Source of the DNA: an uncultured Actinomycetes bacterium
GTDB taxonomy: Bacteria; Actinomycetota; Thermoleophilia; UBA2241
Length of the DNA stretch: 64,000 nucleotides
Assembly (NCBI GenBank): GCA_963725665.1
Contig: CAVRZA010000001.1
Span: 192,001-256,000, forward strand
Reading direction: 5' to 3'
Part shown: one piece after another, positions 16,039 to 50,671 of the stretch
Numbering within the stretch: position 1 is the stretch's first letter
How the letters are laid out: each line of letters starts with the position of its first letter
The notes under the pieces: model-generated
Seen by the model: the letters and a program-made list of their open reading frames with translations, nothing else
Database searches by the model: none
Told to the model about the DNA's origin: nothing
Position numbers and translations under genes: made by a program

Positions 16039-18291
16039 CTAGGTTCCCTCCACGTTCGACAGCACGCGCTCGAAGCGCGCCAGCGCGTCGTCTATGACCT
16101 CGTCGGTGTCGGCCATGGAGGTGTACATCCGCGAGCCGGCAAGGGTGATGATGCCGCTCGCCGTGTAGGCCGCGCCCATCTCCTCCAGCATGTGCTTGCG
16201 CGTGCTGAGCTCCTTGAGCAGTCGCACCGGATGGTGCAGGTCGAGGAGCATGACGCCCGAGGTCTCGAGGTGCACGATCGAGCCTTGGTTGTAGGCGACG
16301 TAGGGCAGGCCGAGGCGGTCGATGATCGCCTGAAGACCCTTGGTCAGGCGGTCGCCGGCGCGGCCGGCTATGACCGGTGCATTGGTGCGTTCCATCTCCA
16401 GCAACGCGAAGTAGCCGGCCGCGCACGAGAGAGGGTTCGCCGACAGCGTCCCACCGATGTAGGCGCGCTCGCCGCTCTTGCCGCCGATGCCCGAGGCGAA
16501 GGTCATCATCACGTCGGTGCGACCTCCTACACCGCCGGCCATCGGGTAGCCGCCGCTGATGCACTTGCCGAACACGGTGAGGTCGGGCTTGACGCCGAAG
16601 TAGCCCTGAGCGCCGCCGAGCCCCAGTCTGAAACCGGTGACGACCTCGTCGAAGACGAGCAGCGCGCCGAACTCGTCGCAGAGCTCGCGCACGCGCGCGT
16701 TGCAGTCGAAGGGCACCGGCCGCGTGCCGCTCTCGGGACCGACCGGCTCGACGATGACTGCGGCGGTGCCGCCCAGCATCCGGTTCTCGATGAGCTTGCG
16801 GCGCAGCGCCTTGAGGTCGTTGGGGTAGACCTCGCGGGTACGCAAGGTCGCGCCCAGCGGGATGCCTTTGGCCTCGAAGCGCCACGTGCCCGGGACGTGC
16901 AGCCCGTAGACCATCTGGTCGCTCCAGCCGTGGTAGGCGCCGCCCATCTTGATGACGTACTTCCTCTTCGTGAACGTGCGCGCCGCGCGGATGGCGGCCA
17001 TCGCGGCCTCGGTGCCCGAGCCCAGCATACGGAACATCTCGATCGAGGGCATGAAACGGCCGACCAGCTCGGCGAGCTTGAGCTCGTACTCGTGGAACAG
17101 GCCGGTCACCGGCCCGCACTGCTGGAGGAGCTCGATGACCCGGTCTCGCACGGGCGCGTAGTTGCTGCCCAGCACGGTCGCTCCGCCGGCTTGCAGGAAG
17201 TCGATGTAGCGGTTGCCGTCGACGTCCCAGAGGAAGGCGCCGTCGGCCCTTTCGACGGCGAGCGGGAACGGGTGGTTGAAGGCGAGGTTGTGCTGCACCC
17301 CCCCAGGGATGAGCTCCCTCGCCTCGTCTGTGAGCTGCTTGCTGCGCGCACACTTCGTCTCGAAGTAGTCGAGGTACTCCTCCATGGCCGCCGGCCGTAT
17401 GCGGCGCAGCGGCCGGCTCACCAGCGCGTCCAGCTTGGCGTAGACCGCGTCGACATCGAGGTACTCGCTGATCGCATACTGCCGGGTGGTGGGCGCGTCC
17501 TGCGGAGGCTGGTCGGCGACAGCGGCGGCGGGCGCGCTCCGCGCGCCCGCCGCCGCCTCATCGGCCGGCGGCTTCGCATGGGCGACCTCGCCTGCCGCTG
17601 CGGCCTCGGCCGCCTCTTCGACCTGCGTCGCGAGCTTGCGCTCGTCGGCGCGTAGCATGCTGAAGACGATCTCGCGGATGGGCAGCGGGATCACTTCGGT
17701 CTTCTGTCCGGCCATGAGCGTGAGGAGGTAGTCGAGCGCCACCTTCTCGAGCAACGCCATGTTGCGCACCGCATGCTCGGCGTCGGTGCCGAGCACGAGC
17801 ACCCCGTGGCTGCCCAGCAGAAAGGCGTTGTCGCCGCCACGGATCGCGCGCTTGACCCTGTTCTTGAGGAACGACGTCCCCGACGGCGCGTACGGCACGA
17901 TGCGCACGCCGCGGCCAAGGTAGCGGACCTGCTCGTCGAAGAGCGCCGGGATGGGCTTGCCCATGAGTCCCAGGGCGCTCGCGTAGGGCTGGTGGGTGTG
18001 GATGATGGCGTTCACGTCGGCCCGCTGCTCGTACACGGCCGCGTGCATGCCGGCCTCGATAGAGGCCTTCTTGGTGCCCAGCAGCTGATGCAGCCGGTAA
18101 TCGAGGACGCAGATGTCGTCGGGCTGCATCTTGTCGTAGTCGTAGCTGCTCGGCGTTATGGCGAGCAGCTCGCGGCCGAGCACGCGCGCGGAGACGTTAC
18201 CTTCGGTCGCCTTGAGGTAGCCGCGCTCGAGCAGGGTCCGGCACATCGAAACGACGAGTTCCCGTGTGTTGTCGAACTGGCCCATGACCAT
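16039..18291 (-). CDS. Fusion: class II aldolase/adducin domain + class III (GSA-aminomutase-like) aminotransferase
   Basis: N-term EGNVS, ITPS, IIHTHQ, GSHG; Ala/Pro linker; C-term DVDGNRYID, SGTEA, FDEVVTGFR, FGK. Confidence 0.9.
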   Translation of the reverse strand: MVMGQFDNTRELVVSMCRTLLERGYLKATEGNVSARVLGRELLAITPSSYDYDKMQPDDICVLDYRLHQLLGTKKASIEAGMHAAVYEQRADVNAIIHTHQPYASALGLMGKPIPALFDEQVRYLGRGVRIVPYAPSGTSFLKNRVKRAIRGGDNAFLLGSHGVLVLGTDAEHAVRNMALLEKVALDYLLTLMAGQKTEVIPLPIREIVFSMLRADERKLATQVEEAAEAAAAGEVAHAKPPADEAAAGARSAPAAAVADQPPQDAPTTRQYAISEYLDVDAVYAKLDALVSRPLRRIRPAAMEEYLDYFETKCARSKQLTDEARELIPGGVQHNLAFNHPFPLAVERADGAFLWDVDGNRYIDFLQAGGATVLGSNYAPVRDRVIELLQQCGPVTGLFHEYELKLAELVGRFMPSIEMFRMLGSGTEAAMAAIRAARTFTKRKYVIKMGGAYHGWSDQMVYGLHVPGTWRFEAKGIPLGATLRTREVYPNDLKALRRKLIENRMLGGTAAVIVEPVGPESGTRPVPFDCNARVRELCDEFGALLVFDEVVTGFRLGLGGAQGYFGVKPDLTVFGKCISGGYPMAGGVGGRTDVMMTFASGIGGKSGERAYIGGTLSANPLSCAAGYFALLEMERTNAPVIAGRAGDRLTKGLQAIIDRLGLPYVAYNQGSIVHLETSGVMLLDLHHPVRLLKELSTRKHMLEEMGAAYTASGIITLAGSRMYTSMADTDEVIDDALARFERVLSNVEGT

Positions 18292-20676: not shown

Positions 20677-21486
20677 TCAGGCGAGCGCGCCGGCCTCGCG
20701 CAGCAGTCCGAGGAACGCCGGCATGAGGGCGGGGTGCGCGGCGACCACCGCGGGACCCCGCCCGTGCGCCGGCTGCGGAAACGCGACCTCAGCGCCGGCC
20801 TCGCGCGCGATGACGCCGCCGGCCGCGTAGTCCCACGGCGAGAGGTCGAGCTCCCAGTAGGCGTCGAGATGACCGGCGGCGATGTGGCAGAGATCGAGCG
20901 CGGCCGACCCGCCGCGACGCATGTCGCGCACGCGGCCGAGGACCGTCGCCGTGGCGAGGCCCTGCAGCTCGCGCTGCGACGCGTCGTAGGAGAAGCCGGT
21001 GGCGACCAGAGCCTGCGAGAGGTCGGTCTGTTCTCGCGCCCTGATCGGCCGACCGTCGCAGCGCGCGCCGAGACCGCTGATCGCCTGGTAGAGGTGTCCC
21101 GCGCTCGAGTCGTAGACGACGCCGACGCGCGGCTGCCCGTCGATCTCGACGCCGATCGACACGGCGAAGGCCGGGTAGCCGTACACGTAGTTGGTGGTGC
21201 CGTCCAGTGGGTCGATGACCCAACGCACACCGGTCGAGCTCTCGCTCCGCGAGCCCTCCTCGGCAAAGACGGCATCGCCTGGTCGCAGATCGGCCAGCCG
21301 CCCCACGATCAGGCGTTCCGCCTCGTGGTCGATGTGGCTGACCATGTCGGTGGGCGACGACTTCGTCTCGACGCGGAGGGTGGACTCCAGGCCCTCCGTA
21401 TGGAGCCGCCCCGCGTCCTCGGCCAGGTCGGTCGCCAGCGCGAGCAGCTCACCAAGTTCAGGCGGCGCGTCGCCCCAGCGAGCCAT
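20677..21486 (-). CDS. Inositol monophosphatase family protein
   Basis: WVIDPLDGTTNY, GSAALD, WDYAAG. Confidence 0.93.
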   Translation of the reverse strand: MARWGDAPPELGELLALATDLAEDAGRLHTEGLESTLRVETKSSPTDMVSHIDHEAERLIVGRLADLRPGDAVFAEEGSRSESSTGVRWVIDPLDGTTNYVYGYPAFAVSIGVEIDGQPRVGVVYDSSAGHLYQAISGLGARCDGRPIRAREQTDLSQALVATGFSYDASQRELQGLATATVLGRVRDMRRGGSAALDLCHIAAGHLDAYWELDLSPWDYAAGGVIAREAGAEVAFPQPAHGRGPAVVAAHPALMPAFLGLLREAGALA

Positions 21487-21530: not shown

Positions 21531-22985
21531 TCACAGGAACCCGCGCAGCTTCTGCGCCGCCAGGTTCGCCAGCCGGAGCTCGATGGGAAACCCGAAGGAG
21601 CGGTTCTTCCAGCGATAGCGTGCGGCCTTGTTCATGACGCCGTAGGCGGCCTTGAACGCGGCGCCGTGCTCGTCGACGCGCGACTGAGGGTAGAACGCGT
21701 ACCTGGTCACGGCCGAGATCGTGCGCAGCTTCTCGACATAGGCCCTGGTATGCCAGGGCGGCTCGAAATGGAACACCTCGATCTCGCCCCACTCCTCCAG
21801 TGACCGCGGCGGCGTGAACTCGGGAGGGAGCGTCTCGAGCAGAGGGCTTGGGAAAGGCGTGTAGAGGAAGATGCCGTAGTGCTGCGTGCGCGGGTTGGTC
21901 TCGCCCATCCGGTCCATCAAGTCGAACGTCTTCTCCATGTCCTCATACGTCTCTCCGGGAAGACCGCTGAGCCACGAGACGAAGGGATCGATCGACGGTG
22001 CCCAGTCGTGCAGCTTTCTCACCGACGTGAGGATCTGCTCCGCCGTGACGTCTTTGCACACGAGCTCCTGCAGGCGCTCGGCGCCGCTCTCGCCGCCGAA
22101 ATCGAGCTCTCTGCAGCCTGCTCGCTCCAGCAGGCTCACGAACTCCTCGTCGTACCGGGCGAGGTAGTCGAAGCGGCAGTTCGCCCGCCAGGCGACTTTG
22201 ACGTCGCGATGCAGGATCTCTTTGCAGATCGCCTCGACGCGCTTGCGATCGACGAAGAAGTTGTCGTCGACAGGGTCGATGATCTTCACGTGCGGGAAGC
22301 GCTCCAGCACGTACGCCATCTCGTCGACGACGCGCTGCGGGCTCTTGCCCCGCCAGCGGCGCTTGTTGAAGCCGGTGTTGTAGCAGAAGCCGCATCTGCT
22401 GGGGCAGCCGCGACTCGTCTGGAGGTGGGCGCGACCGGCCTGCAGGGTCGGGTAGCTCTCCAGCCGCAGCAATTCGTAGGGCAGCTCGATCGGGATGCCG
22501 TCGAGGTCGATTAGGTCGGCGTCGGGAGTGCTCGAGATCGCCCCGTCGTTCTTGAAGGTCACACCGTTCACGTCGTCGAGCGGCTCACCGGCGGCGAGCC
22601 TGTCGGCCAGGGGGCCGACGACAGGCTCGCCCTCACCGCGGACCACGACGTCGACGAGCTCGCTGGCGGCGGTCTGCTCGGGAAGCAGCGTGGGATGCAC
22701 GCCGCCCCAGACGATGGGAACGCGGGGCCGCTCGGCGCGCACCTTCTTCGCGAACTCGCGCCCGTAGCGGATCTGTGGGCCGCTCATACAGGTCACGCCG
22801 ACGAACACGGGATCGCCGAGGTCGAGGCCGCGGGAGTCTTCGAGCCGCATGTCGACGATGCGTACCGCGTAGCCGGCGTGCCGGAGCGCGCTCGCCACGT
22901 AGAGTAGCTGGAGAGGGACCTGCGGGTCCGGGGCTCTGTGTCTGCCCGGGAAGACGAGCAGGACTTCGTTGCGCGGACTTCTCAC
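21531..22985 (-). CDS. B12-binding radical SAM protein (1)
   Basis: WGGVHPT, GEGE B12 domain; SRGCPSRCGFC; DDNFF. Confidence 0.92.
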   Translation of the reverse strand: MRSPRNEVLLVFPGRHRAPDPQVPLQLLYVASALRHAGYAVRIVDMRLEDSRGLDLGDPVFVGVTCMSGPQIRYGREFAKKVRAERPRVPIVWGGVHPTLLPEQTAASELVDVVVRGEGEPVVGPLADRLAAGEPLDDVNGVTFKNDGAISSTPDADLIDLDGIPIELPYELLRLESYPTLQAGRAHLQTSRGCPSRCGFCYNTGFNKRRWRGKSPQRVVDEMAYVLERFPHVKIIDPVDDNFFVDRKRVEAICKEILHRDVKVAWRANCRFDYLARYDEEFVSLLERAGCRELDFGGESGAERLQELVCKDVTAEQILTSVRKLHDWAPSIDPFVSWLSGLPGETYEDMEKTFDLMDRMGETNPRTQHYGIFLYTPFPSPLLETLPPEFTPPRSLEEWGEIEVFHFEPPWHTRAYVEKLRTISAVTRYAFYPQSRVDEHGAAFKAAYGVMNKAARYRWKNRSFGFPIELRLANLAAQKLRGFL

Positions 22986-23132
22986 GACGAGACGCTCTCC
23001 CGACCGTTCGCTTTCGAGTAGTCTATGACACGTAATCACCGTGTGGACGTCGCGATGTCAGCGACGGGTGTCGAGAGTCGACACTCGGCCGTCTCGAGTC
23101 AAACGGTCCGGCCGGTCGAGGAGAGGAACATC

Positions 23133-24461
23133 TTGCCCAGGGTAGCCTTGGTGTTTCCCTATTTCCGCACCAGAGCGCCGACCGAGGTGCTGTTCCCTCC
23201 GCTCGGCGTGGCCACTCTCGCCGCCCAGCTGCGCAAGCTCGCGATCGAGACGCGGGTCTTCGACTGCACGTTCGGCACGTTTGAACGCCTCCGCGCCGAC
23301 CTGCTCGGCTACGAGCCCGACATCGTGGGCGTCTCAACGATGGTCAGCCTGACGCGCAACACGCTGCGCGTCGCCGAGATGGTCAGGGAGAGCCTCCCGC
23401 GCAGCCTGCTCGTCGCCGGCGGCCCCCTGCCCACCGTGTTCCCCCGCCGCTACACGGGACGGTTCGACGCGGTCTTTCGCGGAGAGGCCGACGTGAGCTT
23501 CCCCCGCTTCTGCTGGGACTATTTGGGGCAGCGCGCCGAGCGCGGGGCGCTCGGCGCGCTGCCCCTCGACGTCTATGACGGCCTGTTCGTGCCGAATCAT
23601 GGCCTGATGGTCGACAACCCGACCGTGCACCACGGCGAGGGTGAGCTGGAGTCGTTTCCGTTGCCCGACCGCAGCGACTTCGACCACGCCGCCTATCAGG
23701 AGGCGTGGCTGCGGGCGACGGGGTCGAAGGTCACGTCGATCATCGTCACTCTCGGTTGTCCTTTCGGCTGCGACTTCTGCTCGAAGCCCGTCTTCGGCAG
23801 TCTCGTCCGTCGCCGGAGTCTCGACGCCGTCTTCGCCGAGATCGAGCAGCTCCACGACCTCGGCTACGACGGCCTGTGGATCGCCGACGACACCTTCACG
23901 TTGAGTCGGCCCCATCTCGAGGAGTTCTGCCGGCGCATGGTCGAGCGGCAGGCGGTGCACCGGGGGATGAGCTGGAGCTGCCTTTCGCGTGTGGACGGGA
24001 TCGACGCTGCGACGGCGCGCGACATGAAAGAGGCGGGTTGCCGGAGAGTCTATCTCGGCCTCGAGTCGGGCAGCCAGGCGACGCTCGACTTGATGAAGAA
24101 GCAGGTCGCGGTCGAAGAGGGGATCCGGGCGGTCCACCTCTACCGCGAGGCGGGCATCGAGGTCGCCGGCTTCTTCATCGTCGGCTACCCGGGGGAGTCC
24201 GTCTCTTCGATCGAGGAGACCCTCAGGCTCGCGTTGACGCTGCCGCTCGACGAGATCTCGTTCAACGTCCCCTATCCGTTGCCGGGCTCGCGGCTGTTCG
24301 AGCGGCTCGGGAGCCCCGACGAGGGCCGGGACTGGGAAAGCGAGAACGAGGTCACCTTCGTCTATCCCTCGGAGATCGACGAAGCGTGGCTGCGCCGCCG
24401 CATCGAGGAGACCGTGGAGGCTTTCGCGCAGAAGCGGCAGCCGGCGGCGGTCCGCGGTTGA
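23133..24461 (+). CDS. B12-binding radical SAM protein (2)
   Basis: FPPLG, GGPLPT, GCPFGCDFC, DDTF, GLESGS. Confidence 0.92.
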   Translation: MPRVALVFPYFRTRAPTEVLFPPLGVATLAAQLRKLAIETRVFDCTFGTFERLRADLLGYEPDIVGVSTMVSLTRNTLRVAEMVRESLPRSLLVAGGPLPTVFPRRYTGRFDAVFRGEADVSFPRFCWDYLGQRAERGALGALPLDVYDGLFVPNHGLMVDNPTVHHGEGELESFPLPDRSDFDHAAYQEAWLRATGSKVTSIIVTLGCPFGCDFCSKPVFGSLVRRRSLDAVFAEIEQLHDLGYDGLWIADDTFTLSRPHLEEFCRRMVERQAVHRGMSWSCLSRVDGIDAATARDMKEAGCRRVYLGLESGSQATLDLMKKQVAVEEGIRAVHLYREAGIEVAGFFIVGYPGESVSSIEETLRLALTLPLDEISFNVPYPLPGSRLFERLGSPDEGRDWESENEVTFVYPSEIDEAWLRRRIEETVEAFAQKRQPAAVRG

Positions 24462-24470
24462 TCGCTGCTC

Positions 24471-25859
24471 CTACCGTAGGCGCCTGAGCAGCCTGTCGGT
24501 GGGTCTCTCGAAGGCTCTGAGCACGGCGGGAGCGGCTCTGCCGCAGCGCCGCTTGATCTCGAACTGCGCGCGACCCTTCAGCATCGCGAAGCGCATCTTC
24601 GTCGCCGAGACGTCGGCGTCGAAGGTGAGCGTGTGATCCAGGAGAAGCCCGCCGTGCTGCCGCCAGGCGCGCGTGCGCCGGGGGCCGATCCTGTCGAGGA
24701 GCGGTGTTCCGGGGAGCGGATAGGGCATGGTGAGGCCCAGGTAGTCCAGCGGCAGCGACCCGGCGAAGCGCAGGGTGTCGAGCACGGTGTCGTCGCTGTC
24801 GCCGGGGTAGAAGAGGATGAAGAACGCCCCTACCTGCAGGCCCGCGCGATGGGCCGCCTCGACGGCGCTCCTCGCCTGATCCGTCGTGATCTGCTTCTTC
24901 ATGAGCCTCAGGACCTCATCGTTGCCGGACTCGATCCCGAAGAAGATCCTGAAGCAGCCCGCGTCTCTCATCGCGCGGGCCGTCTCATCGTCGAGCGAGT
25001 CGACGCGGCCGAGGCATTCCCATGAGAAGCGCAGCCGGCGGCGGGTGATCTCGTCGCAGATCGAGATCACCCGCCGCCGGTTCAGCGTGAACACGTCGTC
25101 GGCGAACGAGATGCGGTCGTAGCCGAGAGCGAGGGCCTCCTCGATCTCGTCGACCACGTTCCCCGGCGACCGTTCGCGGTAGGAATCGCCGAAGACGACG
25201 TTGCTGCAGAACTCGCACTCGTACGGGCAGCCGCGCGTGCTCATGAGCGTGGTGATCGCGTAGCTGTCTCTGCGTCTGCCGTGGTCGATGTAGCGCTGGT
25301 TGGGGAGGAGCTCGCGGGCGGGGAAGGGGATGCGGTCGAGGTCGCGCGCGAGCGGGCGCGGGGGGGCGGGCACGCCCGCCGCGTCGGGCGCGGAGGTTCC
25401 CTGCTCGCCGGCGTCGTCTCTCCGCTGGCGGCAGACGACGCCGGGTATCTCTTTCATGTCGCCGCCGCTCGCGAATGCGGCGACGATCTCACGTATCGTC
25501 TCCTCCCCCTCGCCGCGAACGACGACGTCGAAGTGATCCCTGAAGGCCTCGGGGTCGCACGTCGGCAGCGGACCGCCTGCCACCAGCAGCCGGCAGTGGC
25601 CGCGCAGGCGGTCGGCGAACCAGAGGCAGTCGTCCAGTAGCGTGACCATGCAGGAGATGCCGACGATCTCCGCCCGCGCCGTCAGGGCCTCGGCAAGGGC
25701 CTCGTCCCTGCGCATGAACGTGCAGTCGAGCACCTGCACGGTGTGCCCGGCCTCCTTGAGGCTCGCCGCGAGGTAGGCCACGCCGAGCGGGGGGAACCGG
25801 AACCGTGAGCGGTCTCGCCGCGGGCGAAAGAACGGGTAGATGAGCAGGACGGAGGTCAT
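24471..25859 (-). CDS. B12-binding radical SAM protein (3)
   Basis: FPPLG, GGPLPT, RGEGE, RGCPYECEFC, DDVF, GIESG. Confidence 0.92.
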   Translation of the reverse strand: MTSVLLIYPFFRPRRDRSRFRFPPLGVAYLAASLKEAGHTVQVLDCTFMRRDEALAEALTARAEIVGISCMVTLLDDCLWFADRLRGHCRLLVAGGPLPTCDPEAFRDHFDVVVRGEGEETIREIVAAFASGGDMKEIPGVVCRQRRDDAGEQGTSAPDAAGVPAPPRPLARDLDRIPFPARELLPNQRYIDHGRRRDSYAITTLMSTRGCPYECEFCSNVVFGDSYRERSPGNVVDEIEEALALGYDRISFADDVFTLNRRRVISICDEITRRRLRFSWECLGRVDSLDDETARAMRDAGCFRIFFGIESGNDEVLRLMKKQITTDQARSAVEAAHRAGLQVGAFFILFYPGDSDDTVLDTLRFAGSLPLDYLGLTMPYPLPGTPLLDRIGPRRTRAWRQHGGLLLDHTLTFDADVSATKMRFAMLKGRAQFEIKRRCGRAAPAVLRAFERPTDRLLRRLR

Positions 25860-25927
25860 CGGCTCGCTGCGGTCATCGGGCCCGCGCGAAGACCATCCCT
25901 CTCGTTCATGCGCATCCCCTCGTTCAT
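25856..25927 (-). CDS. Possible 23-aa translationally coupled mini-ORF MNEGMRMNERDGLRAGPMTAASR
   Basis: ATG overlaps upstream TGA (ATGA) and its TGA overlaps the rSAM(3) ATG (ATGA); fills the gap exactly. Confidence 0.35.
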   Translation of the reverse strand: MNEGMRMNERDGLRAGPMTAASR

Positions 25928-26760
25928 CCCGTCCTCTCGATCCGCATGTCGTAGCCGAACCGCTCTAGGGTCGGCGCGAAGGAGTAGCCGAAGCCCGACC
26001 ACGCCACGCGAGAGCCGATGAGCTCTCTACCCCGGTCGAGTCGCGCGCCGTCGACCTGCCCGAGCGAGAAGGCGACGCCGCGTGTGGCGCTGACGAACGA
26101 AGCCCGCGCGGCCGTGACCTGGTTCCAGGTGCCGATCTCGTCACCTTGAAGCGCGACTCCGTCGGCATCCTCGTAGCGGTCGAAGTGCCGCGCCCCCTGC
26201 TCGTTCATCACGATCACCTCGGTGACGCCGTGGAGGGGCGCGTCGGGTGGCCGAAGCGAGACGCCGACGCGCCTCTCGTCGGCATGCACGACGTAGACCA
26301 TCGTCAGCGTAGCGACCCTCTCGGCCTCCTCGAAGGTCGTCGCCCAGCCGAACGTGCGGCGCAGGGCGTTGGACGTCGCGGTCAGCGGGCCCCGCAGCAC
26401 CGGCGAGCGGCGGTGCAGCGCCGCTAGAGCGTTCTTGGCCGCGTAGAGCGACCGGGGACTCAAGGGTGTGCCGCCGGGCCCGGCCAGACGTTCGACGAGG
26501 TTCATGTCGAAGGCGGCCGTCACGACGCGGTCTCCGTCCACGAGTTGTGAGGTCAGTTCGACCGCTCCCGGAAAGATCGTCTGGATGCCACGCTTGAGGA
26601 CGGGGACGCCGAACCCGACGCCCTCTTCCGCCAGCTCCTCTGCCCGGTCGAGCAGCAGGAGCCCCTTCTGCAGTCGTCGCGTCGGGTAGCCCCCGCCTCC
26701 ACCAGATCGGTCGCCGATCGTCAGCGCGAGGCCGTCGCGCAGAGGGATGTTCAGCTCCAC
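25924..26760 (-). CDS. Hypothetical soluble protein in radical SAM cassette
   Basis: VELNIPLRDG...EEGVGFGVPV...MNEQGA.HF...GRE..GSR.AWSGF; GAGGAG RBS, overlaps upstream gene. Confidence 0.75.
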   Translation of the reverse strand: MELNIPLRDGLALTIGDRSGGGGGYPTRRLQKGLLLLDRAEELAEEGVGFGVPVLKRGIQTIFPGAVELTSQLVDGDRVVTAAFDMNLVERLAGPGGTPLSPRSLYAAKNALAALHRRSPVLRGPLTATSNALRRTFGWATTFEEAERVATLTMVYVVHADERRVGVSLRPPDAPLHGVTEVIVMNEQGARHFDRYEDADGVALQGDEIGTWNQVTAARASFVSATRGVAFSLGQVDGARLDRGRELIGSRVAWSGFGYSFAPTLERFGYDMRIERTG

Positions 26761-28187
26761 CGCATTGTCTCCTCGCGCGCATCCCCCGCTGGAACCGGAT
26801 GCTCGACGGCTCGGGGCGTCCATCTCCTCAGGCAGGTGAAGACGATCCACCACCCGACGACCTGCCAGGCGACTACGACAGCCGCCTTGGCAAGCAGGAG
26901 GCCGTGGCTGTGGCGCACGGCGAACGGCAGCGTCTGCTGCATGACATCGGGAAACGCGACCCACAGGAGGTGCAGTGGTGAGGTGTTGAAGAGGGTGAAC
27001 ACGAGAGGCAGCACCCAGAGGGCGGTCAGGGCGCGACGGTCGAGGGCGCCCATCGAGGTCAGTATGACGGCCATTGGCAGCACCAGGACGACGTTCGTCT
27101 CGGCGAGCCAGGTCCGCGTGAGAAAGACGATCAGGGTGAACGCAAGGCTCATTCTCAGCAGGTCCTCGAGGCCGCCGTCGCCGCGCTTGAGCGCCAGGAT
27201 GCCCAACGCCAGGGCGGCGATCCAGACGAGGCCCAGGAGCCACCATCTGCCCTGCATGAGGAGCGGGTCGCGGAAGACCCTGATGACCGTCGTGTACGAC
27301 ATCGCCCCGCGCAGGACGAAGTGGGCGTTGAGATCCTGCGAGAACGGGGCCCGGCTCCATCCGAAGACGAAGAACGGGGCCACGTAGAACGCGAACACCC
27401 CGCCGATGAACAGCGCCGAGTAGCGGATCGCGCTGCGCCAGGATACGCCGACGAGACGGATGAGCGCGGCGGGCAGAAGCGATAGAGCGGTAGGCTTGAA
27501 GCATACGGCCAGGGCCAGCACGAGGGCCGAGCCGTCTCGTCGCCGCGCTGAGAGAAGAGCGAGAGCCGCAAGGGAGAACAGCGCGACGACGGCGTCGATC
27601 TGACCCCAGGCGGCGCCGAAGTAGAGAAGGCACGGGTTCAAGAGCATGAGCGTCCACGCCTTGCGTGACGCCGCGCGTGGGGCGCCGAGGTTCTCGAGGA
27701 TCGCCCCGACCAGGTAGGCGAGGCCGATGGTGGCCGCGATCACGGGGATCTTGATGGCGAGGTTGTAGACGAGGAGGTTGTGGGCGAGCGCGTAGGAGCC
27801 CCGATACACGAGGCCCAAGGCCAGCGGCCATGGGGGTGGGTACCCCACCGCCGACGGCACGTCGAAGAACATGTGGTGGAACACCCGGTTGAGGTTGTGG
27901 GCCACGTACGGGTCGTGTCCGGTGCCGACCAGGTAGCCCGTGGCCATGAAGACGCGCGTGTCGGTGGAGTGCCCGAAGAAGACCCCGAGCGCGAGCTGTA
28001 GCGCGATGCTGAGGATGAGGATCCGGCGGTCGGGCGTCGCGAAGCGCTTCCAGCCGCCGGCGCCAGCGTGAACGACGGGCGCGACGGCCGCCCCATCCGC
28101 GGCGGCTGCTTGAGGCCTGGTCTGCCCCTGGGTGCCCACCGTCACATCCCCGAGGCTGGACCAGGACAGCCCATCATCCCGCGACAC
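26751..28187 (-). CDS. GT-C-type (GT87/PIG-M-like) multi-TM membrane glycosyltransferase-like protein
   Basis: Luminal acidic loop GHSTD, GYPPPWP, LLNP...WGQIDA, VCFKP; ~11 hydrophobic segments; start uncertain. Confidence 0.7.
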   Translation of the reverse strand: MSRDDGLSWSSLGDVTVGTQGQTRPQAAAADGAAVAPVVHAGAGGWKRFATPDRRILILSIALQLALGVFFGHSTDTRVFMATGYLVGTGHDPYVAHNLNRVFHHMFFDVPSAVGYPPPWPLALGLVYRGSYALAHNLLVYNLAIKIPVIAATIGLAYLVGAILENLGAPRAASRKAWTLMLLNPCLLYFGAAWGQIDAVVALFSLAALALLSARRRDGSALVLALAVCFKPTALSLLPAALIRLVGVSWRSAIRYSALFIGGVFAFYVAPFFVFGWSRAPFSQDLNAHFVLRGAMSYTTVIRVFRDPLLMQGRWWLLGLVWIAALALGILALKRGDGGLEDLLRMSLAFTLIVFLTRTWLAETNVVLVLPMAVILTSMGALDRRALTALWVLPLVFTLFNTSPLHLLWVAFPDVMQQTLPFAVRHSHGLLLAKAAVVVAWQVVGWWIVFTCLRRWTPRAVEHPVPAGDAREETMRWS

Positions 28188-28200
28188 ATGCTCGCGCTGA

Positions 28201-28677
28201 CTAGGTACGCACGTAGACGACGAAGTAGACGGCCACGCCCAGGGCTGTGCCGAGCATGTAGAGCAGATAGGCGAGGCGCATGAAGGTCTTGTACCGGGTC
28301 AGGCTTTGACCCTTCGCCTCGAGCTGGTTGGCGCGGATCACGATGAACACTCCCAGCGCGACGCCGATCGCCCCGACGACGGCGTGGATCGTCGTGAGGG
28401 CGTACGTCTCCTTGCCCAGAGCGGCGGGGATCTCGGGGAGCACGTAGAGGACGAAGAACCTGATCATCCAGACGACCACGGGGATGAGGTTCAGACACAC
28501 GGCCGCCGTCTGTACCCAGCGATGCGCGCCATAGCGGCGGGCGACAGCGAGGCGCCAGCCGACCGTGAGCGCCGCCGCCGCCACCAGCGTGATGACGAGC
28601 GACAGGTCGGAGCCCAGGGTGCCGTGCGCCCCCAGAAACCCGGAACCTTCCAGGAATGCGATCATCGATGCCCCCAT
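28201..28677 (-). CDS. DUF420-like membrane protein
   Basis: 4 TM helices with conserved His (AHRWVQ, IHAVVG). Confidence 0.65.
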   Translation of the reverse strand: MGASMIAFLEGSGFLGAHGTLGSDLSLVITLVAAAALTVGWRLAVARRYGAHRWVQTAAVCLNLIPVVVWMIRFFVLYVLPEIPAALGKETYALTTIHAVVGAIGVALGVFIVIRANQLEAKGQSLTRYKTFMRLAYLLYMLGTALGVAVYFVVYVRT

Positions 28678-33735: not shown

Positions 33736-36351
33736 CTACTTCACCGTCACCTTGACCGTCGGCGACGTAGAGCTCGCAACGGTTGTGTTGCCGGCGTAGA
33801 GCGTCCTGAAGTACCAGGCGCCCTTCGCTGACGGCCTGTAGGTCTTGCTGTAGCCACTGCTCGCGTTGAGCGCGAACGTGTTCACAGCGGTCTTCCAGGT
33901 CCCACTCGTCGTGCGGCGGTACTGGATCTTGACGTTTCCGGTCGTGGCTGGCGTGACCTTGCCCGACAGCTTGACCGTCTTGCCGAGCAGGATCGTGCTG
34001 GCCGATTTAGCCAGCGTCGTCTTCGACGCCATCTTGGCGACGGCGACCTTCATCGATGCGCTGGCGAGGTCGGTCCCCGAGTCGCCGGAGCGAGCCCACA
34101 CGACCTTGTAGGTCGTGGCGGCGGCCGGGGTGACCATGAAGGCGAAGTTGCCCTGTGCGTCGGCAGTCGTCTTCATGCCCGTGTCGACGCCGTTCGCCCA
34201 GAGGGCGAGCGACGCGCCGGCGGCGCCGGTGGCATCACCGTTCACGACCTTGCCGGTCACGAAGCCGGTGCCACCCGGGACGACGGACTTCGAGGCGAAG
34301 AGCTGAGCGAACGCGCCGCCCACCGACTTCGCCTCCTGCACGGCCTTCGTGAGACCGGCCTGGATGTAGGCGGGGTTGTGAGCGCCGTCGGATGAATCGG
34401 CCTCCCACGCCTTGTAGTTCCAGGTCGCCCGACCGATGAGGATGTATCCGGGCTTCGTGCTGTCGGTCAGGGAGTACTCGGCCGGCGGTGTGGCGGCGTC
34501 GGTGACGGCGAGGATCGCGGCCTTGGCATTGTCGGCCAGGGTCGTGGCATCACCCTGCCACGTGTTGATGTACACCTGCAGATCGTCACGCGACTCGGTC
34601 GCGTGGCACTTCGAGCAGGAGTCCTCGCCGATGTACTGCGTGGTGCCCGCCGCGGTGGCCGCCGACATCCAGTCGTCGGCCTTCTCGGGGAGCATGATCT
34701 TCATGCCGTGCGAGAAGCGGTTGGCAGCCCTGTTGGTCTTGGGCATGTGGCAGTCTTCGCACTTGACGCCCGGCATGACCTGGGTGGTGTCGGGCACGTC
34801 GACCATCACGCTGCGGCCGTGGTACATCTCGCGCTGCGGATGGCTGACCAGATGCTCCGTGAGGTCCGGAAGTCCGGTGGTGGGGTCGGCCAGCGGCTTG
34901 TAGGTGGGTGTCGTGCCGAGGACCTCCATCTGCCAGTTGTGGCAGTCCTCGCAGATGCTCTGGTTGTCGACCGTGAGACCCTTCGCACTGCGCGAGGCGT
35001 CGGTGTCGCCTGCCTTGTCGGGCTGGCGGATGACGTCGGGCGCGTTGGGGCCCGAGGGGTGCGCGGCGTGGCAGGTGACGCACTCCTGGCCCATCTTGCC
35101 GGTGTCGGTGGCGTCGAGTGTCACGTTCGCGGCGAGGGGGTCGCCCTTGCTGTTGAGGTACCCCTCACCCGTGTGGCACTTCAGGCAGCCGGGTGCCGCC
35201 GTGGCCAGGGTGAAGTGAGTCGAGGTATCGGCCCTGGCCTGGTAGGCGAGGGCGTCCGGATCGGTCTTGGCCAGGGCCTGACGCCACGAGTGCGCCGAAG
35301 CCGACCACTCGTTGTAGTAGTAGTGGCTGCCCTTAGCGTTGCTCCCGTTGGGGAACATGAAGTACGCCGTCGGGTTCGCGAGGAACTCGGTCTCGGTTGG
35401 GATGTAGGTGTACGATTGACCGCCCGACACGCCGTTGATGTCGACGAAGTTGCGCATCGGCTGGTTGGTCGTGTAGCCGTAGATGCCCAGCGTGCCGGTC
35501 ACGGTGGTGTAGCTGCCGTGGCACTGGCCGCACACCTGGGACTGGCCGAGGACGTCCAGCGTCTTGGAGACGTCAACGCCCGTGAGATGGTGCTGGGTCG
35601 CTGTCGCATCGGCGACGCCGGTGCCGTGGCAGTTCTCGCACTGGATGCTCATGCCGGGGTACGACACGGTCGGATCGGCCATGAAGTCGGCCGCCGTCTT
35701 GGTGTCGTCGCGGGCCCACTGCCTCGCCGTCGTGGCGCTGGCGGCGATGGTCGCGGCCGGGTTCGGCACCGCCTGGCCCGCCGCCGTCGTCGGCACCGTG
35801 GAGCCGAGCTGGTGGCAGCGCTGGCAGCCGTACTGGACGTCGTATAGGCCCGTGTCCGGAGCCTCCAGACCGACGGTGTAGTCACCTTCGTCGATCGGCA
35901 CAGGGTGGCCCGCCTTGGGCTCGGCCGTGAGACCTTCGACGAGGTTCCAGGGGTTGATGTTGGGATCGGTGCTGCCCATCCAGAAGTTGTACTCGGTCGC
36001 CGCGCCGCCGGCGAAGTCGCCTAGGGTCATCCAGGGCTGGCCGGCGATCGAATAGGTACCGCCGCCGTCGAACAAGGCCGGCGGGGTGCCGGCGACCACC
36101 GGCGGAGTCCCTGCGGCCCTGAAGTCGGTCCAGCTTGCCGGAGGCGTTGGCACCAGGCCTTGCTTGGCGAAGCGGCTGTGTACCGTATCGAGGGTGGTGT
36201 TGCCGAACCCACTGTGGCAACCGACGCACGCAGCCTGGCCCGCGTAGTGCATACCGTACTCGTTGACGAGACCGGCAGCCAGCGCCGTCGCCGGGACCAT
36301 CACCATGGCGACGATGGCTACGGCGAACAACAACAGTATCTTTTTCCCCAT
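33736..36351 (-). CDS. Secreted multiheme cytochrome c (9 CxxCH) with C-terminal Ig-like domains
   Basis: Signal peptide MGKKILLL...ATALA; CVGCH, CQRCH, CENCH, CGQCH, CLKCH, CVTCH, CEDCH x2, CSKCH; DSSDGAHNP tail; beta-rich C-terminus. Confidence 0.92.
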   Translation of the reverse strand: MGKKILLLFAVAIVAMVMVPATALAAGLVNEYGMHYAGQAACVGCHSGFGNTTLDTVHSRFAKQGLVPTPPASWTDFRAAGTPPVVAGTPPALFDGGGTYSIAGQPWMTLGDFAGGAATEYNFWMGSTDPNINPWNLVEGLTAEPKAGHPVPIDEGDYTVGLEAPDTGLYDVQYGCQRCHQLGSTVPTTAAGQAVPNPAATIAASATTARQWARDDTKTAADFMADPTVSYPGMSIQCENCHGTGVADATATQHHLTGVDVSKTLDVLGQSQVCGQCHGSYTTVTGTLGIYGYTTNQPMRNFVDINGVSGGQSYTYIPTETEFLANPTAYFMFPNGSNAKGSHYYYNEWSASAHSWRQALAKTDPDALAYQARADTSTHFTLATAAPGCLKCHTGEGYLNSKGDPLAANVTLDATDTGKMGQECVTCHAAHPSGPNAPDVIRQPDKAGDTDASRSAKGLTVDNQSICEDCHNWQMEVLGTTPTYKPLADPTTGLPDLTEHLVSHPQREMYHGRSVMVDVPDTTQVMPGVKCEDCHMPKTNRAANRFSHGMKIMLPEKADDWMSAATAAGTTQYIGEDSCSKCHATESRDDLQVYINTWQGDATTLADNAKAAILAVTDAATPPAEYSLTDSTKPGYILIGRATWNYKAWEADSSDGAHNPAYIQAGLTKAVQEAKSVGGAFAQLFASKSVVPGGTGFVTGKVVNGDATGAAGASLALWANGVDTGMKTTADAQGNFAFMVTPAAATTYKVVWARSGDSGTDLASASMKVAVAKMASKTTLAKSASTILLGKTVKLSGKVTPATTGNVKIQYRRTTSGTWKTAVNTFALNASSGYSKTYRPSAKGAWYFRTLYAGNTTVASSTSPTVKVTVK

Positions 36352-40747: not shown

Positions 40748-42955
40748 TCAGATGGTGCCGCTCGGGCTCGTGAGGCCGTCGACGGAGTTGCCGGTCGGGC
40801 TCGTGAGGTCGTAGACGGTGATCCCGCCCACGGACGTGGACGCGAAGTTCGACTCTACCCACGAGGCGATCTCGCTCATCGACGAGCCGCCTCCCCCGAA
40901 GCCTCCGCCGCCCATGCCACCGGCGATGAAGTAGTGCACGCGCCCGGCGTTCACCAGGGCCTGGAACTGGGCGAGGCTCGGGTAGGGGTCGCTGCCGTTG
41001 AAGCCGCCGAGGCTCATGACGGGCAGGTCGGTGGCGAGCTGGTAGCCGGCCGCCGACTGCGCGCCGACGGTGGCTGCGATCCAGGTGTAGTTGTCGGCGT
41101 CCGTCTTGAGGAGCGCGACCAGCTCGGCGCTGGGCGTGCTCGCGTCGAGGAGGCCTCCGGCGTTGCCGCCGCCGAAGCCGCCCTGGCCGCCGAAGCCGTT
41201 GCCGGTCCCGCCGAAGCCCTGACCGCCCATGCCGCCGGTGCTGCCGCCTTGCCTGCCGCCCGGCATGCCCGGCCCTGCGAAGCCGCCTTGGGTGCTGTTT
41301 CCGGCCTGGGGGGGAGCTTGACCGCCGAATCCTCCGAACCCGCCGTTTCTGCCGCCACCGCGCCCGAACCCGCCGCCGCGCGCGCCCGCGACCGTCGGTC
41401 CGGCGGTCGGCAGCGAACCGGCGTGCGCGGTGCTCGCCGTCTGCAGCGAGTACGCCGCCGGACCGGCCAGCGCCACCAGGATGCCGGCGACGGCCAGCGC
41501 CGGCGTCGTGCGGCGGCCCAGCCGGCCGCCCGCGGCCAACAGCGCCGCCGCGGTCAGCCCGGCGACGAGGACGAGCGGGCGCAGCCACGGTTGCCAGTCG
41601 GCCGAGCGGGAGAGGAGGACGTAGGACCAAACGGACGTCGCGGCGAGCACGGCGGCCAGAGTGACGCGCCAGGCGAGGTGCGCGCGGCGCTGCCAGAGTG
41701 CGACCGCTCCCGTGCCGACCAGGGCGCCGATGGCCGGGCCCAAGGCGACTGCGTAGTACTCGTGGATGATGCCCTGGGCGAAGCTGAAGACCCCGGCCGT
41801 GACGATCAGCCAGCCGCCCCAGAGGAGGGTGGAGGCGCGCAGGCGATCGGTGCGCGGGGCGCTCCGCGTCAGCCACAGCAGCGCGACCGTGAAGGCCAGC
41901 GCCGCCGGCAGCAGCCATGCCACCTGGCCGCCCCAGGAGGCGGTGAACATGCGGTCCCACCCGGTCGCGCCCCACATGCCGGCGCGACCGGTACCGCCGG
42001 GGACCACGCTGCCGACCTCGTTGCCCGTGATACGCCCGAGGCCGTTGTAACCGAAGATTAGCTCCAGCACGCTGTTGGCCTGCGAGCCGCCGATGTAGGG
42101 CCTGCTCGACGCCGGCCAGAGCTCGACGATCGCGACCCACCAGCCGCCCGAGACGAGCAGCGCGACGCCGGCGAGCACGAGGTGCCAGAGCCGGCGTCGC
42201 AGCCCGATCGGTGCGGCCACCATATAGACGAGAGCGAACACGGGCACGACGAAGAACGCCTGCAGCATCTTGGTGAGGAAGGCGAAGCCTACGAACGTCG
42301 CGGCGAGCATCAGCCAGCGGGCGCCGCCGCGCTCGACGGCGCGCACGGTGGCCCACGCCGACAGCACCAGGAGCAGCACCAGGAGCGCGTCGGGGTTGTT
42401 GAAGCGGAACATCAGCGCGGCGGCCGGTGTGAAGGCCAGGATCGCCCCGGCTATCAGGCCGGCGACGGGCCCGAACCAGCGGCGCAGGGTCGCGTAGAGG
42501 ACGGCGACCGCCGCGACGCCCATGAGCGCCTGCGGCACCAGGATGCTCCACGAGTTGACGCCGAACAGGCGCGCCGAGAGGCCCATCACCCAAAGCGACG
42601 CCGGCGGCTTGTCGACGGTGATGAAGCTGGCCGCGTCGGAGGAGCCGAAGAGGAAAGCCTTCCAGCTCTGCGTGCCGGCTTGCACCGCGGCGGAGTAGAA
42701 AGCGTTGGCCCAGCCGGACTTGCCCAGGCCGACGAGGTAGAGCAGCGCCGTGCCGACGAGCAACGCGAGGAGGGCGGGCTGGACCCAGGCGGGGTCATCC
42801 GGTCGGCCGCGCCAGAGCCGTCCCACAAAGGAGGGCCGGGACGGCTCCGGCGCGGCGGTGTCCTGGCCGGCCCGATCGGCGCGGCCGGTCTGATCGGGCC
42901 GATCCAGGTCGAGAGGGGTGGGGCTGGCTGGTCCGGTCTCGAAGGTCATGGTCAT
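40748..42955 (-). CDS. ArnT/PMT family (GT39/GT83-like) glycosyltransferase
   Basis: ANAFYSAAV, VDKPP, FRFNNPD, FLTKMLQA; Gly-rich C-terminal stretch. Confidence 0.92.
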   Translation of the reverse strand: MTMTFETGPASPTPLDLDRPDQTGRADRAGQDTAAPEPSRPSFVGRLWRGRPDDPAWVQPALLALLVGTALLYLVGLGKSGWANAFYSAAVQAGTQSWKAFLFGSSDAASFITVDKPPASLWVMGLSARLFGVNSWSILVPQALMGVAAVAVLYATLRRWFGPVAGLIAGAILAFTPAAALMFRFNNPDALLVLLLVLSAWATVRAVERGGARWLMLAATFVGFAFLTKMLQAFFVVPVFALVYMVAAPIGLRRRLWHLVLAGVALLVSGGWWVAIVELWPASSRPYIGGSQANSVLELIFGYNGLGRITGNEVGSVVPGGTGRAGMWGATGWDRMFTASWGGQVAWLLPAALAFTVALLWLTRSAPRTDRLRASTLLWGGWLIVTAGVFSFAQGIIHEYYAVALGPAIGALVGTGAVALWQRRAHLAWRVTLAAVLAATSVWSYVLLSRSADWQPWLRPLVLVAGLTAAALLAAGGRLGRRTTPALAVAGILVALAGPAAYSLQTASTAHAGSLPTAGPTVAGARGGGFGRGGGRNGGFGGFGGQAPPQAGNSTQGGFAGPGMPGGRQGGSTGGMGGQGFGGTGNGFGGQGGFGGGNAGGLLDASTPSAELVALLKTDADNYTWIAATVGAQSAAGYQLATDLPVMSLGGFNGSDPYPSLAQFQALVNAGRVHYFIAGGMGGGGFGGGGSSMSEIASWVESNFASTSVGGITVYDLTSPTGNSVDGLTSPSGTI

Positions 42956-44190
42956 CAGGTCCTTGACGTCGTTGTGTCTGTTTGTTGCGGGAACAGCCAG
43001 CCCCGGAAGAGGACGAAGCGTAGAAGGGTGGCGGTGACGCTGGCCGCGATGAGAACAGCCAGCTCCAGGCGGTGGCTCGCACTCGGGTCGAGGCCGTGGA
43101 GGAGCACGAGGCTGCCGCTCGTCACCGTCAGGCCGAGCGCGAAGACCACGAGGCCCTGCGTCTGATGCCGCAGCCAGCCCTTTGAGCCGCGCACGCCGAA
43201 GGTGAGGCGCCGGTTCGCCGCCGTGTTGGCGATGGCGGTCGCCGCCAGCGCCAGCGCGTTGGCAAGCTGAGCCGGCAGGGCGGCGCGGAACACAAGGTAG
43301 AGTGCGGCATAGGCCAGCGTGCTGGCGGCGCCGATCAGGCAGAAGCTCGCGAGCTGCCACGCGAAACGGGGGCGCGCCGCGCCCTCCAGCGGGTCCGCCT
43401 GCCCGTCGCCGCGCAGCGCGGCGAGCGGCAGGCGGCCCGCGGTCAGGGCGCGGCGCAGCCGCCAGACGCCCTTCAGATCGGCGAGCGCCGTCGCCGCGAT
43501 GTCGACGCGAGAATCGGGGTCGTCTACCCAATCGACGGGGACCTCGTGGATGCGCATCCCGGCGCGTTCGGCCAGCACGAGGAGCTCCGTGTCGAAGAAC
43601 CAGCCCGTGTCCTCGATCAGGGGCAGCAGCCGCTGCGCCTGATCGGCGCGGATGGCTTTGAAGCCGCACTGCGCGTCGGAGAACCTCGACCTGAGCACGA
43701 CGCGCAGCAGCAAATTGTAGCAGCGCGATGTGAGCTCGCGCTTGGCGCCGCGCACGACGCGCGAGCTCCGCGCGAGCCTGGTGCCGATGGCCACGTCGGA
43801 GTGGCCCGAGAGTAGGGGCGCGACCAGCGGCAACAGCGCGGCCAACCCGGTCGAGAGGTCGACGTCCATGTAGACCAGCACGTCGGCGTCGCTGGAGCCC
43901 CAGACAGAGTGCAGCGCCCGGCCTCGTCCCTTGGCGTCGAGGTGGACGGCGCGCACCGCCGGCAGCGACCTCTCGAGCCGCCGCGCGATCGACCAGGTGT
44001 CGTCGGCGCTGGCGTTATCGGCGATGGTGAGGCGGAAGGTGAAGGGCAGGTGCGTCGTGAGGTAGGCGTACAGGCGGCGCACGTTGGGCTCGAGGTCGGC
44101 CTTCTCGTTGTAGACGGGCACGACGATGTCGAGCTCTGGCGCCGCGACCTCGGTCAGGGGAGCGACTCGATGTGCCAGCGCAGTCGTCAT
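42955..44190 (-). CDS. GT2 glycosyltransferase-GtrA fusion (polyprenyl-phosphate sugar synthase)
   Basis: VPVYNE, ADNAS, YMDVD, DAQCGFK, WFFDTELL; C-terminal GtrA helices. Confidence 0.92.
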   Translation of the reverse strand: MTTALAHRVAPLTEVAAPELDIVVPVYNEKADLEPNVRRLYAYLTTHLPFTFRLTIADNASADDTWSIARRLERSLPAVRAVHLDAKGRGRALHSVWGSSDADVLVYMDVDLSTGLAALLPLVAPLLSGHSDVAIGTRLARSSRVVRGAKRELTSRCYNLLLRVVLRSRFSDAQCGFKAIRADQAQRLLPLIEDTGWFFDTELLVLAERAGMRIHEVPVDWVDDPDSRVDIAATALADLKGVWRLRRALTAGRLPLAALRGDGQADPLEGAARPRFAWQLASFCLIGAASTLAYAALYLVFRAALPAQLANALALAATAIANTAANRRLTFGVRGSKGWLRHQTQGLVVFALGLTVTSGSLVLLHGLDPSASHRLELAVLIAASVTATLLRFVLFRGWLFPQQTDTTTSRT

Positions 44191-44213
44191 GCGAGGCATC
44201 GTACGTGCCTCTG

Positions 44214-44241
44214 CTGAAGCGGACCTGAGCCTCACCTGAGA
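44214..44241 (-). promoter_or_regulatory. Three 11-bp-spaced TCTCAG-like direct repeats (MprA/OmpR-type box)
   Basis: Minus strand TCTCAG, GCTCAG, CTTCAG at 11-bp period upstream of -10 TACGAT and leaderless ATG 44190. Confidence 0.55.
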
Positions 44242-50596: not shown

Positions 50597-50671
50597 GGAC
50601 ACTCCCCCTCGCTTCGCGGTCGCTGCCGCTCGGTCAGTCGACAGGCTCGCCGATGATGGCGAGCCATCCTC

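Follow-up and report, generated by a model that had tools for sequence, protein, structure and literature searches.

The locus described here raises the question of what three cobalamin (B12)-binding radical S-adenosylmethionine (SAM) enzymes do beside a membrane glycosyltransferase and a small soluble protein, and whether these genes form a unit at all. The genes lie in 64,000 nucleotides of DNA from an uncultured Actinomycetes bacterium (contig CAVRZA010000001.1, positions 192,001 to 256,000), hereafter the window, and encode the radical SAM proteins rSAM1, rSAM2 and rSAM3, a GT-C glycosyltransferase and a 278-residue protein, X. A first-pass annotation treated the three radical SAM enzymes and the GT-C as the unit and proposed a pathway that tailors a membrane lipid or glycolipid, with a possible inositol head group. 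The genes are indeed linked; however, the unit that is conserved across genomes is a minimal core of DUF420, a membrane protein overlooked in that annotation, X and rSAM3, to which GT-C, rSAM2, a GT2 glycosyltransferase and rSAM1 are lineage-dependent additions. The favoured reading, to which about an even chance is given, is that the module uses radical chemistry to remodel the sugar carried by a membrane glycolipid, or a lipid-linked sugar, the substrate and product being inferred.

The module was defined by a scan of GTDB genomes with an alignment of X. The best 80 of 157 confirmed loci were grouped as 42 Chloroflexota, 30 Actinomycetota, 6 archaea and 2 others, and as the loci were chosen via X, the counts show the companions of X and not whether rSAM3 ever stands without it. 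rSAM3 follows X in 78 of the 80 loci, both misses being contig ends. Of the 62 pairs that are intact, 57 have an overlap of 4 nucleotides (nt), among them pairs from methanogenic and anaerobic methanotrophic (ANME) archaea; the other five pairs show a 1-nt overlap in one case and gaps in four, one of them due to an inserted transposon-type open reading frame (ORF). In a Methanotrichaceae locus (L075, 10813-11934, minus strand) an ORF labelled TnpB/IS200-IS605-like by sequence inspection sits exactly between X and rSAM3. DUF420 is present in 63 loci, including five of the six archaeal ones, which include Methanoperedens and Methanothrix/Methanotrichaceae, and five of the six have the order DUF420-X-rSAM3. 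GT-C is found in 71 of 80 loci (70 in a second count, from which an overlap filter removed L018). rSAM2 is found in 58 of 80, or 52 of the 55 loci that have at least 5 kb on both sides, and in none of the archaeal ones. A cellulose-synthase-like GT2 with multiple transmembrane (TM) segments occurs in 36 loci, 35 of them among the 42 from Chloroflexota and none among the 30 from Actinomycetota. rSAM1 is limited to Actinomycetota (16/30, against 0/50 elsewhere; 16/80 overall), where it is found at four different sites within or next to the cluster. The cultured Longilinea arvoryzae has the full version, GT2-GT-C-X-rSAM3-rSAM2-DUF420. Co-occurrence, which the first-pass annotation put forward as the check on its proposal, thus extends over Actinomycetota, Chloroflexota, single bins labelled Bacteroidota and Chitinivibrionales, and methanogenic/ANME archaea.

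These counts bear directly on the reading that the genes are unrelated and share a neighbourhood by chance or hitchhiking. The absence of rSAM1 from 9 of 20 untruncated Actinomycetota loci and the mixed strands in the window would fit that reading, however the gene order and the convergence of rSAM2 on rSAM3 (58/58 loci) are kept across phyla while the flanks differ, and DUF420 and rSAM1 relocate yet remain within the cluster. Chance is therefore given a negligible probability, and the cluster is a conserved module. The orientation of rSAM2 was also considered as an inversion artefact, which was rejected because the flanking inverted repeats derive only from paralogy and the convergence is kept in all 58 loci. 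The convergent gap is 9 nt in the window, has a median of 32 nt in 46 loci and is at most 50 nt in 33 of these 46, so that a very short junction persists across phyla.

In the window rSAM1 (21531-23039), rSAM3 (24471-25859), X (25924-26760), GT-C (26751-28187) and DUF420 (28201-28677) are on the minus strand and rSAM2 (23025-24461) is on the plus strand, convergent on rSAM3. The first-pass annotation had placed the first four and rSAM2 correctly; DUF420, directly upstream of GT-C and a member of the core, was the gene missed. Translational linkage had been proposed for GT-C, X and rSAM3, and it holds for GT-C and X, whose overlap is 10 nt long; here X does not touch rSAM3, and 64 nt lie between them. 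This gap is bridged by a mini-ORF of 23 codons (25856-25927, minus strand) that has one ATGA overlap with the stop of X and another with the start of rSAM3, and a short direct repeat is visible at the same place. The mini-ORF may preserve the translational coupling of X and rSAM3, or it may be a local duplication or a sequence error. Longest-ORF calling accounts for the 15 nt by which rSAM1 and rSAM2 overlap head to head, since conserved sequence begins only at about residue 26 and residue 40, and the true start of GT-C is probably about 50 codons downstream of 28187. A scan for promoters and terminators gave no signal above shuffled sequence, no tRNA was found in the window, and a Pfam scan of 53 window ORFs, a subset of all ORFs, gave no match to non-ribosomal peptide synthetase, polyketide synthase or hopanoid families.

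Protein X is the obligate partner of rSAM3 in these loci and its fold is the first indication of a substrate. Homologues of X number 838 among 7,999 candidates scored, and clustering at 50% identity yields 520 groups. Across 106 diverse members every Pfam family has at most one match, and a Protein Data Bank (PDB) sequence search with the X profile gave nothing significant (best E 0.28), so that by sequence comparison X represents a new protein family. A search against plasmids gave no match, and the commonest phyla among look-alike clusters of X in the Atlas, where few members are labelled, are Methanobacteriota, Chloroflexota and Bathyarchaeota. Structure prediction of X, which had been suggested at the outset, gave an AlphaFold2 model of a beta-supersandwich with a mean predicted local distance difference test (pLDDT) score of 89.6. 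The model matches polysaccharide lyases, glycoside hydrolase domains, galactose mutarotases and the periplasmic domain of YidC with Z scores of 11-14.5 over ~200 residues at 3-13% identity and no single best match, and X is assigned on this model to the galactose-mutarotase-like supersandwich fold. It differs from the mutarotase, lyase and hydrolase members in having no invariant His and in having an inserted amphipathic helical hairpin (residues 102-137). X does not belong to the aldose 1-epimerase (GalM) family, whose catalytic pair is His/Glu: Aldose_epim had no match in the 106 members at E≤0.1, and no conserved His was found across 196 sequences. The conserved residues are instead carboxylates and tryptophans, with E187 and E246 in 196/196, W254 in 195, E46 in 194 and W212 in 189. 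Carboxylates together with Trp are typical of a carbohydrate site, and E46, E187, E246, W212 and W254 may form a putative sugar site. X has no TM segment. The top-ranked cationic amphipathic windows are its hairpin, which ranks first also in a diverse alignment, and the C-termini of rSAM3 and rSAM1.

Additional links between X and glycosyltransferases come from single database proteins in which X is fused to GT-C (P0133) or to GT2 (P0144). An archaeal locus (L079, 7751-11564, plus strand) features a second operon in which a weak nucleotidyltransferase-like gene, a GT2 and a DUF420-like gene stand with a distant X paralogue (29% identity); the contig ends 0.4 kb after it, and 105 relatives of this distant X were found, with Methanoperedens and Thaumarchaeota labels. 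The fusions and the recurrence of X behind a GT2 and DUF420 both support a sugar role. The distances of X and rSAM3 correlate (Spearman 0.77), however this was not counted as co-evolution as it reflects shared ancestry, and complex prediction for rSAM3 with X scored 0.00 in two runs, which is no answer and was counted neither way.

The radical SAM enzymes were examined for the chemistry that they might perform. As the first-pass annotation had claimed, all three match a B12-binding domain (PF02310) and a radical SAM domain (PF04055) above gathering score, and CxxxCxxC is kept in 13/13 rSAM1, 50/50 rSAM2 and 65/65 rSAM3 full-length orthologues; these profiles and motifs assign them to class B (cobalamin-binding) of the radical SAM superfamily. 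Methylation is described as the commonest reaction of this class (PMC11659888), and the available parts of two reviews contain no sequence rule that separates methylases from non-methylases (PMC13331322, PMC12931638). The best NCBIfam scores of rSAM1-3 are 143, 128 and 142 bits and reach none of the cut-offs (251-775 bits) set for the B12-binding radical SAM models HpnR, BchE, PhpK, ApyD, AprD4, MgmA/QCMT, BzaD, TIGR04072 and others. Two orthologues are likewise below every cut-off, and no module gene mapped to a characterised family; mapping to unrelated families would have told against a common pathway. rSAM3 orthologues are often labelled BchE, many with a JGI name; they share the domain architecture of BchE, however they score 121-152 bits against its cut-off of 481 and their hosts include methanogens. 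The label is a misannotation, since the NCBIfam cut-offs reject it.

The motifs YPFF/FPYF-R..FPPLG and GGPLPT are shared by rSAM2 and rSAM3, as was noted when their paralogy was first suggested, however the special closeness of the pair is slight: identity is 35% between rSAM2 and rSAM3, 27% between rSAM1 and rSAM2 and 32% between rSAM1 and rSAM3. Orthologues are much closer, at 57-78% identity for rSAM3, archaeal ones included, and 70-79% for rSAM1. A FastTree phylogeny of 131 rows resolves three separate orthologous groups in which archaeal rSAM3 and Actinomycetota rSAM3 each form a supported clade; the tree was rooted on rSAM1 by choice and is thus silent on rSAM2/rSAM3 sisterhood and on the direction of transfer. 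The nearest relatives of all three window enzymes are from Actinomycetota bins, and plasmid searches gave only 26-32% matches for rSAM3 and rSAM1 among the best 15 of 226 and 15 of 120 records. The Arg before GCxxxCxxC is kept in 65/65 rSAM3 and 13/13 rSAM1 and is replaced in 50/50 rSAM2. In PDB alignments AprD4 and TsrM lack this Arg, and OxsB and QCMT have it. As a lead only, the pattern suggests that the chemistry of rSAM2 may differ.

In PDB sequence comparisons rSAM1 and rSAM3 both match the sugar-acting AprD4 best (E 1e-25 to 1e-30), and this match opens an alternative in which the radical SAM enzymes modify a soluble sugar, either a nucleotide sugar or a sugar phosphate, that is then loaded on polyprenyl and transferred by GT-C to a surface glycan, an S-layer or a glycoprotein. 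GT-C enzymes use lipid-linked donors, in rSAM2 and AprD4 alike the Arg is replaced by a hydrophobic residue, and the GT2::X fusion would also fit. The AprD4 match is generic at these E values, however, and X and rSAM3 have putative membrane-binding helices. Moreover, no nucleotidyltransferase, epimerase/dehydratase or flippase is among the recurring neighbour families listed. A soluble sugar substrate is accordingly considered rather unlikely, although it is the strongest of the alternatives to a lipid-borne sugar.

The glycosyltransferases provide the second indication of a sugar. The window GT-C scores 17 bits to GT87 (PF09594, gathering score 25), and three orthologues score 26-28 bits. Among 47 orthologues 34 match GT87 (counted at E≤0.01), nine Alg6_Alg8, four PIG-M and two PIG-U. 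Its structural model (pLDDT 83.7) aligns over the full length with GPI (glycosylphosphatidylinositol) mannosyltransferase I (Z 26.3, root-mean-square deviation 4.2, 368 residues), and further matches are ALG6 (Z 25.5), ALG3 (25.0), PIG-U (22.8) and PimE (22.5); Foldseek gives the same set. The fold of PIG-M/Gpi14, ALG6, ALG3 and PimE (Z 22-26) and the conserved Asp after the first TM helix, invariant within a GHxxD motif in GT-C, are common to these proteins, whereas sequence identity is only 11-17%. The multi-TM fold of the model and this acidic residue place the protein in the GT-C superfamily. The cluster GT2 scores 38-41 bits against an HpnI cut-off of 310 and is cellulose-synthase-like.

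Since GPI mannosyltransferase I and PimE both act on inositol lipids, the GT-C matches might be taken to favour tailoring of an inositol phospholipid such as phosphatidylinositol, its mannosides or a GPI-like lipid, with the adjacent inositol monophosphatase (IMPase) family gene (20677-21486, minus strand) as a participant. That gene matches Pfam Inositol_P and is below all NCBIfam cut-offs. The first-pass annotation had linked it to an inositol head group, and this link is not supported: no more than 2 of the 80 loci have an IMPase orthologue. In both the gene is found at the other end of the cluster and directed away from it, again with the HAD neighbour that it has in the window. A fixed flank next to a cluster that has inverted would explain this most simply; IMPase is probably not part of the module, and as a flanking bystander it lends an inositol head group no support. 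Additionally, ALG6 and ALG3 are within ~1 Z unit of GPI mannosyltransferase I, and no inositol synthase or CDP-alcohol transferase is among the recurring neighbours listed, which together make the inositol reading very improbable. Another flank, a pterin/folate-like block with FolB-, FolK- and GTP-cyclohydrolase-like genes, labelled from sequence starts, lies beside the cluster in seven related Chloroflexota loci (L022, L031, L036, L040, L045, L059 and L076, at ~14-19 kb) and is probably lineage synteny.

The third core member, the DUF420 protein, is a CtaM-like membrane protein with four hydrophobic segments that scores 32 bits to PF04238 against a gathering score of 30.5; archaeal members are below this cut-off, and the DUF420 gene of the module is present also in methanogens. 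His52, Met71, His98 and Met133 are invariant in 62/62 aligned sequences, from which a role as a haem- or metal-binding redox partner is possible. CtaM is required for heme-copper oxidase assembly and is proposed to export or reduce copper (PMC13344008), and its homology to heme A synthase is described as disputed (PMC12808453). These features, together with the archaeal core that has no GT-C, are the basis of a further alternative, in which the product or target of DUF420-X-rSAM3 is a small molecule or cofactor that serves metal or redox physiology, with later recruitment of the glycosyltransferases for a different step. However, the recurring neighbours listed include no transporter, no ligase and no other gene of a cofactor pathway, and the distant archaeal X again adjoins a GT2. 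No oxidase subunit is among the recurring neighbour families listed within 10 kb, so the neighbourhood does not point to a CtaM-type function. A small-molecule role is regarded as distinctly less probable than a soluble sugar.

Several known systems combine a radical SAM enzyme with a lipid, and they bear on where in the lipid the module would act. For HpnJ, a ring contraction of the glucosamine on bacteriohopanetetrol (BHT) that gives bacteriohopanetetrol cyclitol ether has been proposed (PMC13459092; PMC9385802; 10.1101/2023.10.20.563219). The HpnI/HpnK/HpnJ pathway is alike in that a GT2 adds the sugar to the lipid before the proposed ring contraction (PMC13459092). It is unlike the module in that X, DUF420 and GT-C are without counterpart there and in that rSAM1-3 score 133, 107 and 130 bits to the HpnJ model (TIGR03471; 107-148 with orthologues) against a cut-off of 577.6. 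The hopanoid genes shc, hpnH, hpnI and hpnK are absent from the recurring neighbour families listed within 10 kb. In Sulfolobales, calditol synthase (Cds) turns the hexose that heads an archaeal lipid into calditol (PMC13459092; PMC9385802), the same type of head-group remodelling as is proposed here. Compared by description only, Cds differs in its reported range (thermoacidophilic Crenarchaeota, Korarchaeota and Marsarchaeota, and acidic metagenomes) and in that the available text describes no X-like partner. NCBIfam output contained no model for Cds, GrsAB, Gmm, Cgm or Ted.

A second group of lipid enzymes, Gmm, Cgm, Pgm, Ted and GrsAB, combines B12-binding and radical SAM domains with a membrane-binding C-terminus; Cgm and Ted are predicted to be peripheral membrane proteins, Cgm being bound C-terminally (10.1101/2025.10.20.683597). 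These enzymes argue for an alternative in which the radical SAM enzymes of the module modify the hydrocarbon tails or the glycerol backbone by methylation, cyclisation or desaturation, as Gmm, Cgm, Grs and Ted do, and the glycosyltransferases merely decorate the lipid. Most of the characterised lipid-acting B12 radical SAM enzymes are described as acting on tails (10.1101/2025.10.20.683597; PMC13459092). The C-terminal amphipathic helices of rSAM3 and rSAM1 would fit this role, and Ted likewise overlaps a partner gene, hgs, for a non-radical-SAM enzyme. By description, however, these enzymes act on glycerol dialkyl glycerol tetraether tails and the Hgs partner belongs to an AttH-like family, whereas the obligate partner X has a carbohydrate-type fold; Ted homologues are defined at 500 residues or more, and rSAM3 has 449-462. 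The module is also mostly bacterial in the loci seen and is accompanied by glycosyltransferases. Finally, the same orthologue occurs in archaea with isoprenoid lipids and in bacteria with fatty-acyl lipids. Tail modification is thus judged unlikely, slightly more so than a soluble sugar.

Remodelling of a lipid-borne sugar is preferred because it is the most economical account of the X fold, two glycosyltransferase classes, membrane-seeking soluble proteins and an enzyme shared between domains. Archaeal and bacterial rSAM3 are 57-60% identical despite different lipid tails, and a shared enzyme would more easily act on a common head group. The original proposal of membrane lipid or glycolipid tailoring is supported in this respect by the sugar-type fold of X, the GT-C fold, the GT2 and the cationic amphipathic helices; its inositol part is unsupported. 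The module resembles known head-group pathways that pair a glycosyltransferase with a radical SAM enzyme and is a member of none of those tested. Cds and HpnJ are precedents for radical SAM chemistry on lipid-bound sugars, and MoeK5, which methylates a sugar of the phosphoglycolipid moenomycin, is one for methylation.

In the favoured reading, a hexose would first be placed on a lipid at the cytoplasmic side, in Chloroflexota by the cluster GT2 and in other lineages by an enzyme not linked to the cluster. Translational coupling would provide X and rSAM3 in a 1:1 ratio, and their cationic amphipathic helices would hold them at the inner membrane face; X would bind the sugar and possibly open, epimerise or cleave it through its Glu/Trp site, and rSAM3 would abstract an H atom from it. 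The His/Met membrane protein DUF420 would give or take electrons. In bacteria, rSAM2, with its atypical motif, and rSAM1 may contribute further radical steps, and GT-C may transfer or extend a glycan at the outer face from a polyprenyl-phosphate-sugar donor. Genes, folds, motifs, co-occurrence and coupling are observed, whereas the substrate, all of the chemistry, the order of steps and a physical complex are inferred. Within this model C-methylation from methylcobalamin takes about half of the expectation, an HpnJ/calditol-type ring contraction to a carbocyclic ether is possible at clearly lower probability, and other chemistry is somewhat less probable again. Elsewhere in the window (40748-44235, minus strand), ~12 kb from the cluster, a GT2+GtrA gene and a PMT_2+YkcB_C GT-C gene form a YkcC/YkcB-like pair, a separate polyprenyl-phosphate-sugar system that could supply a donor.

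A number of observations weigh against sugar remodelling. GT-C is absent from all six archaeal loci, a linked GT2 from five of these six and from all 30 Actinomycetota loci; these absences show that neither glycosyltransferase is an indispensable neighbour. Proteins and domains that are not catalytic or do not act on sugars can have the supersandwich fold as well, among them the YidC periplasmic domain, a viral capsid protein and accessory domains of hydrolases. Sequence scores give HpnJ no edge over the BchE, PhpK or ApyD models. Helices inside the radical SAM barrels score similarly in the amphipathicity scan, which was run without external control. Lastly, CtaM, the sole studied DUF420 member, is tied to heme-copper oxidase assembly and to copper export, not to lipids (PMC13344008).

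Other features of the window lie outside the module. A dimethylamine methyltransferase MtbB-like gene (49190-50602, minus strand) has a single in-frame TAG at codon 356 (49535-49537), and Pfam Dimeth_Pyl covers profile positions 4-353 and 356-462 on either side of it; this arrangement is indicative of pyrrolysine recoding, and the cluster genes of the host sit closest to Actinomycetota bins. An 871-residue multiheme cytochrome c (33736-36351, minus strand) features an N-terminal signal-like stretch and C-terminal Ig-like domains, a class II aldolase is fused to a class III aminotransferase (16039-18291, minus strand), and a DUF6421 domain is split across two overlapping frames (52938-55024, plus strand), which suggests a frameshift or a sequence error.

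No description of the module was found in the open-access PMC and bioRxiv literature, bioRxiv supplements aside. What is new is protein family X and the cross-domain DUF420-X-rSAM3 core. A compact biosynthetic unit is now defined for three uncharacterised B12 radical SAM orthologous groups that are often mislabelled BchE, and X, a family of more than 800 members and no Pfam entry, gains a context. Since the three-gene core occurs in Methanothrix and Methanoperedens, it should be expressible in Methanosarcina acetivorans, the host earlier used to assign archaeal lipid radical SAM enzymes, and Longilinea arvoryzae is a cultured carrier of the full version that is open to direct lipidomics. The module is shared between uncultured bacteria of soils and wetlands and archaea that cycle methane. 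Should the product be a glycolipid with a modified head group, bacteria and archaea would have a new membrane chemistry in common, and wetland and soil lineages that are poorly represented in culture would gain a candidate biomarker. A bolder and improbable version is that X and rSAM3 together make up a cobalamin radical enzyme of two components, X being a new kind of supersandwich subunit, which turns a glycosidic head group into a carbocyclic, ether-linked and hydrolysis-resistant one on archaeal ether lipids and bacterial lipids alike, with rSAM2, rSAM1 and GT-C elaborating it in bacteria. If this is true, anoxic soils and peat would contain a lipid class common to both domains that lipid work based on acid hydrolysis has overlooked or misassigned.

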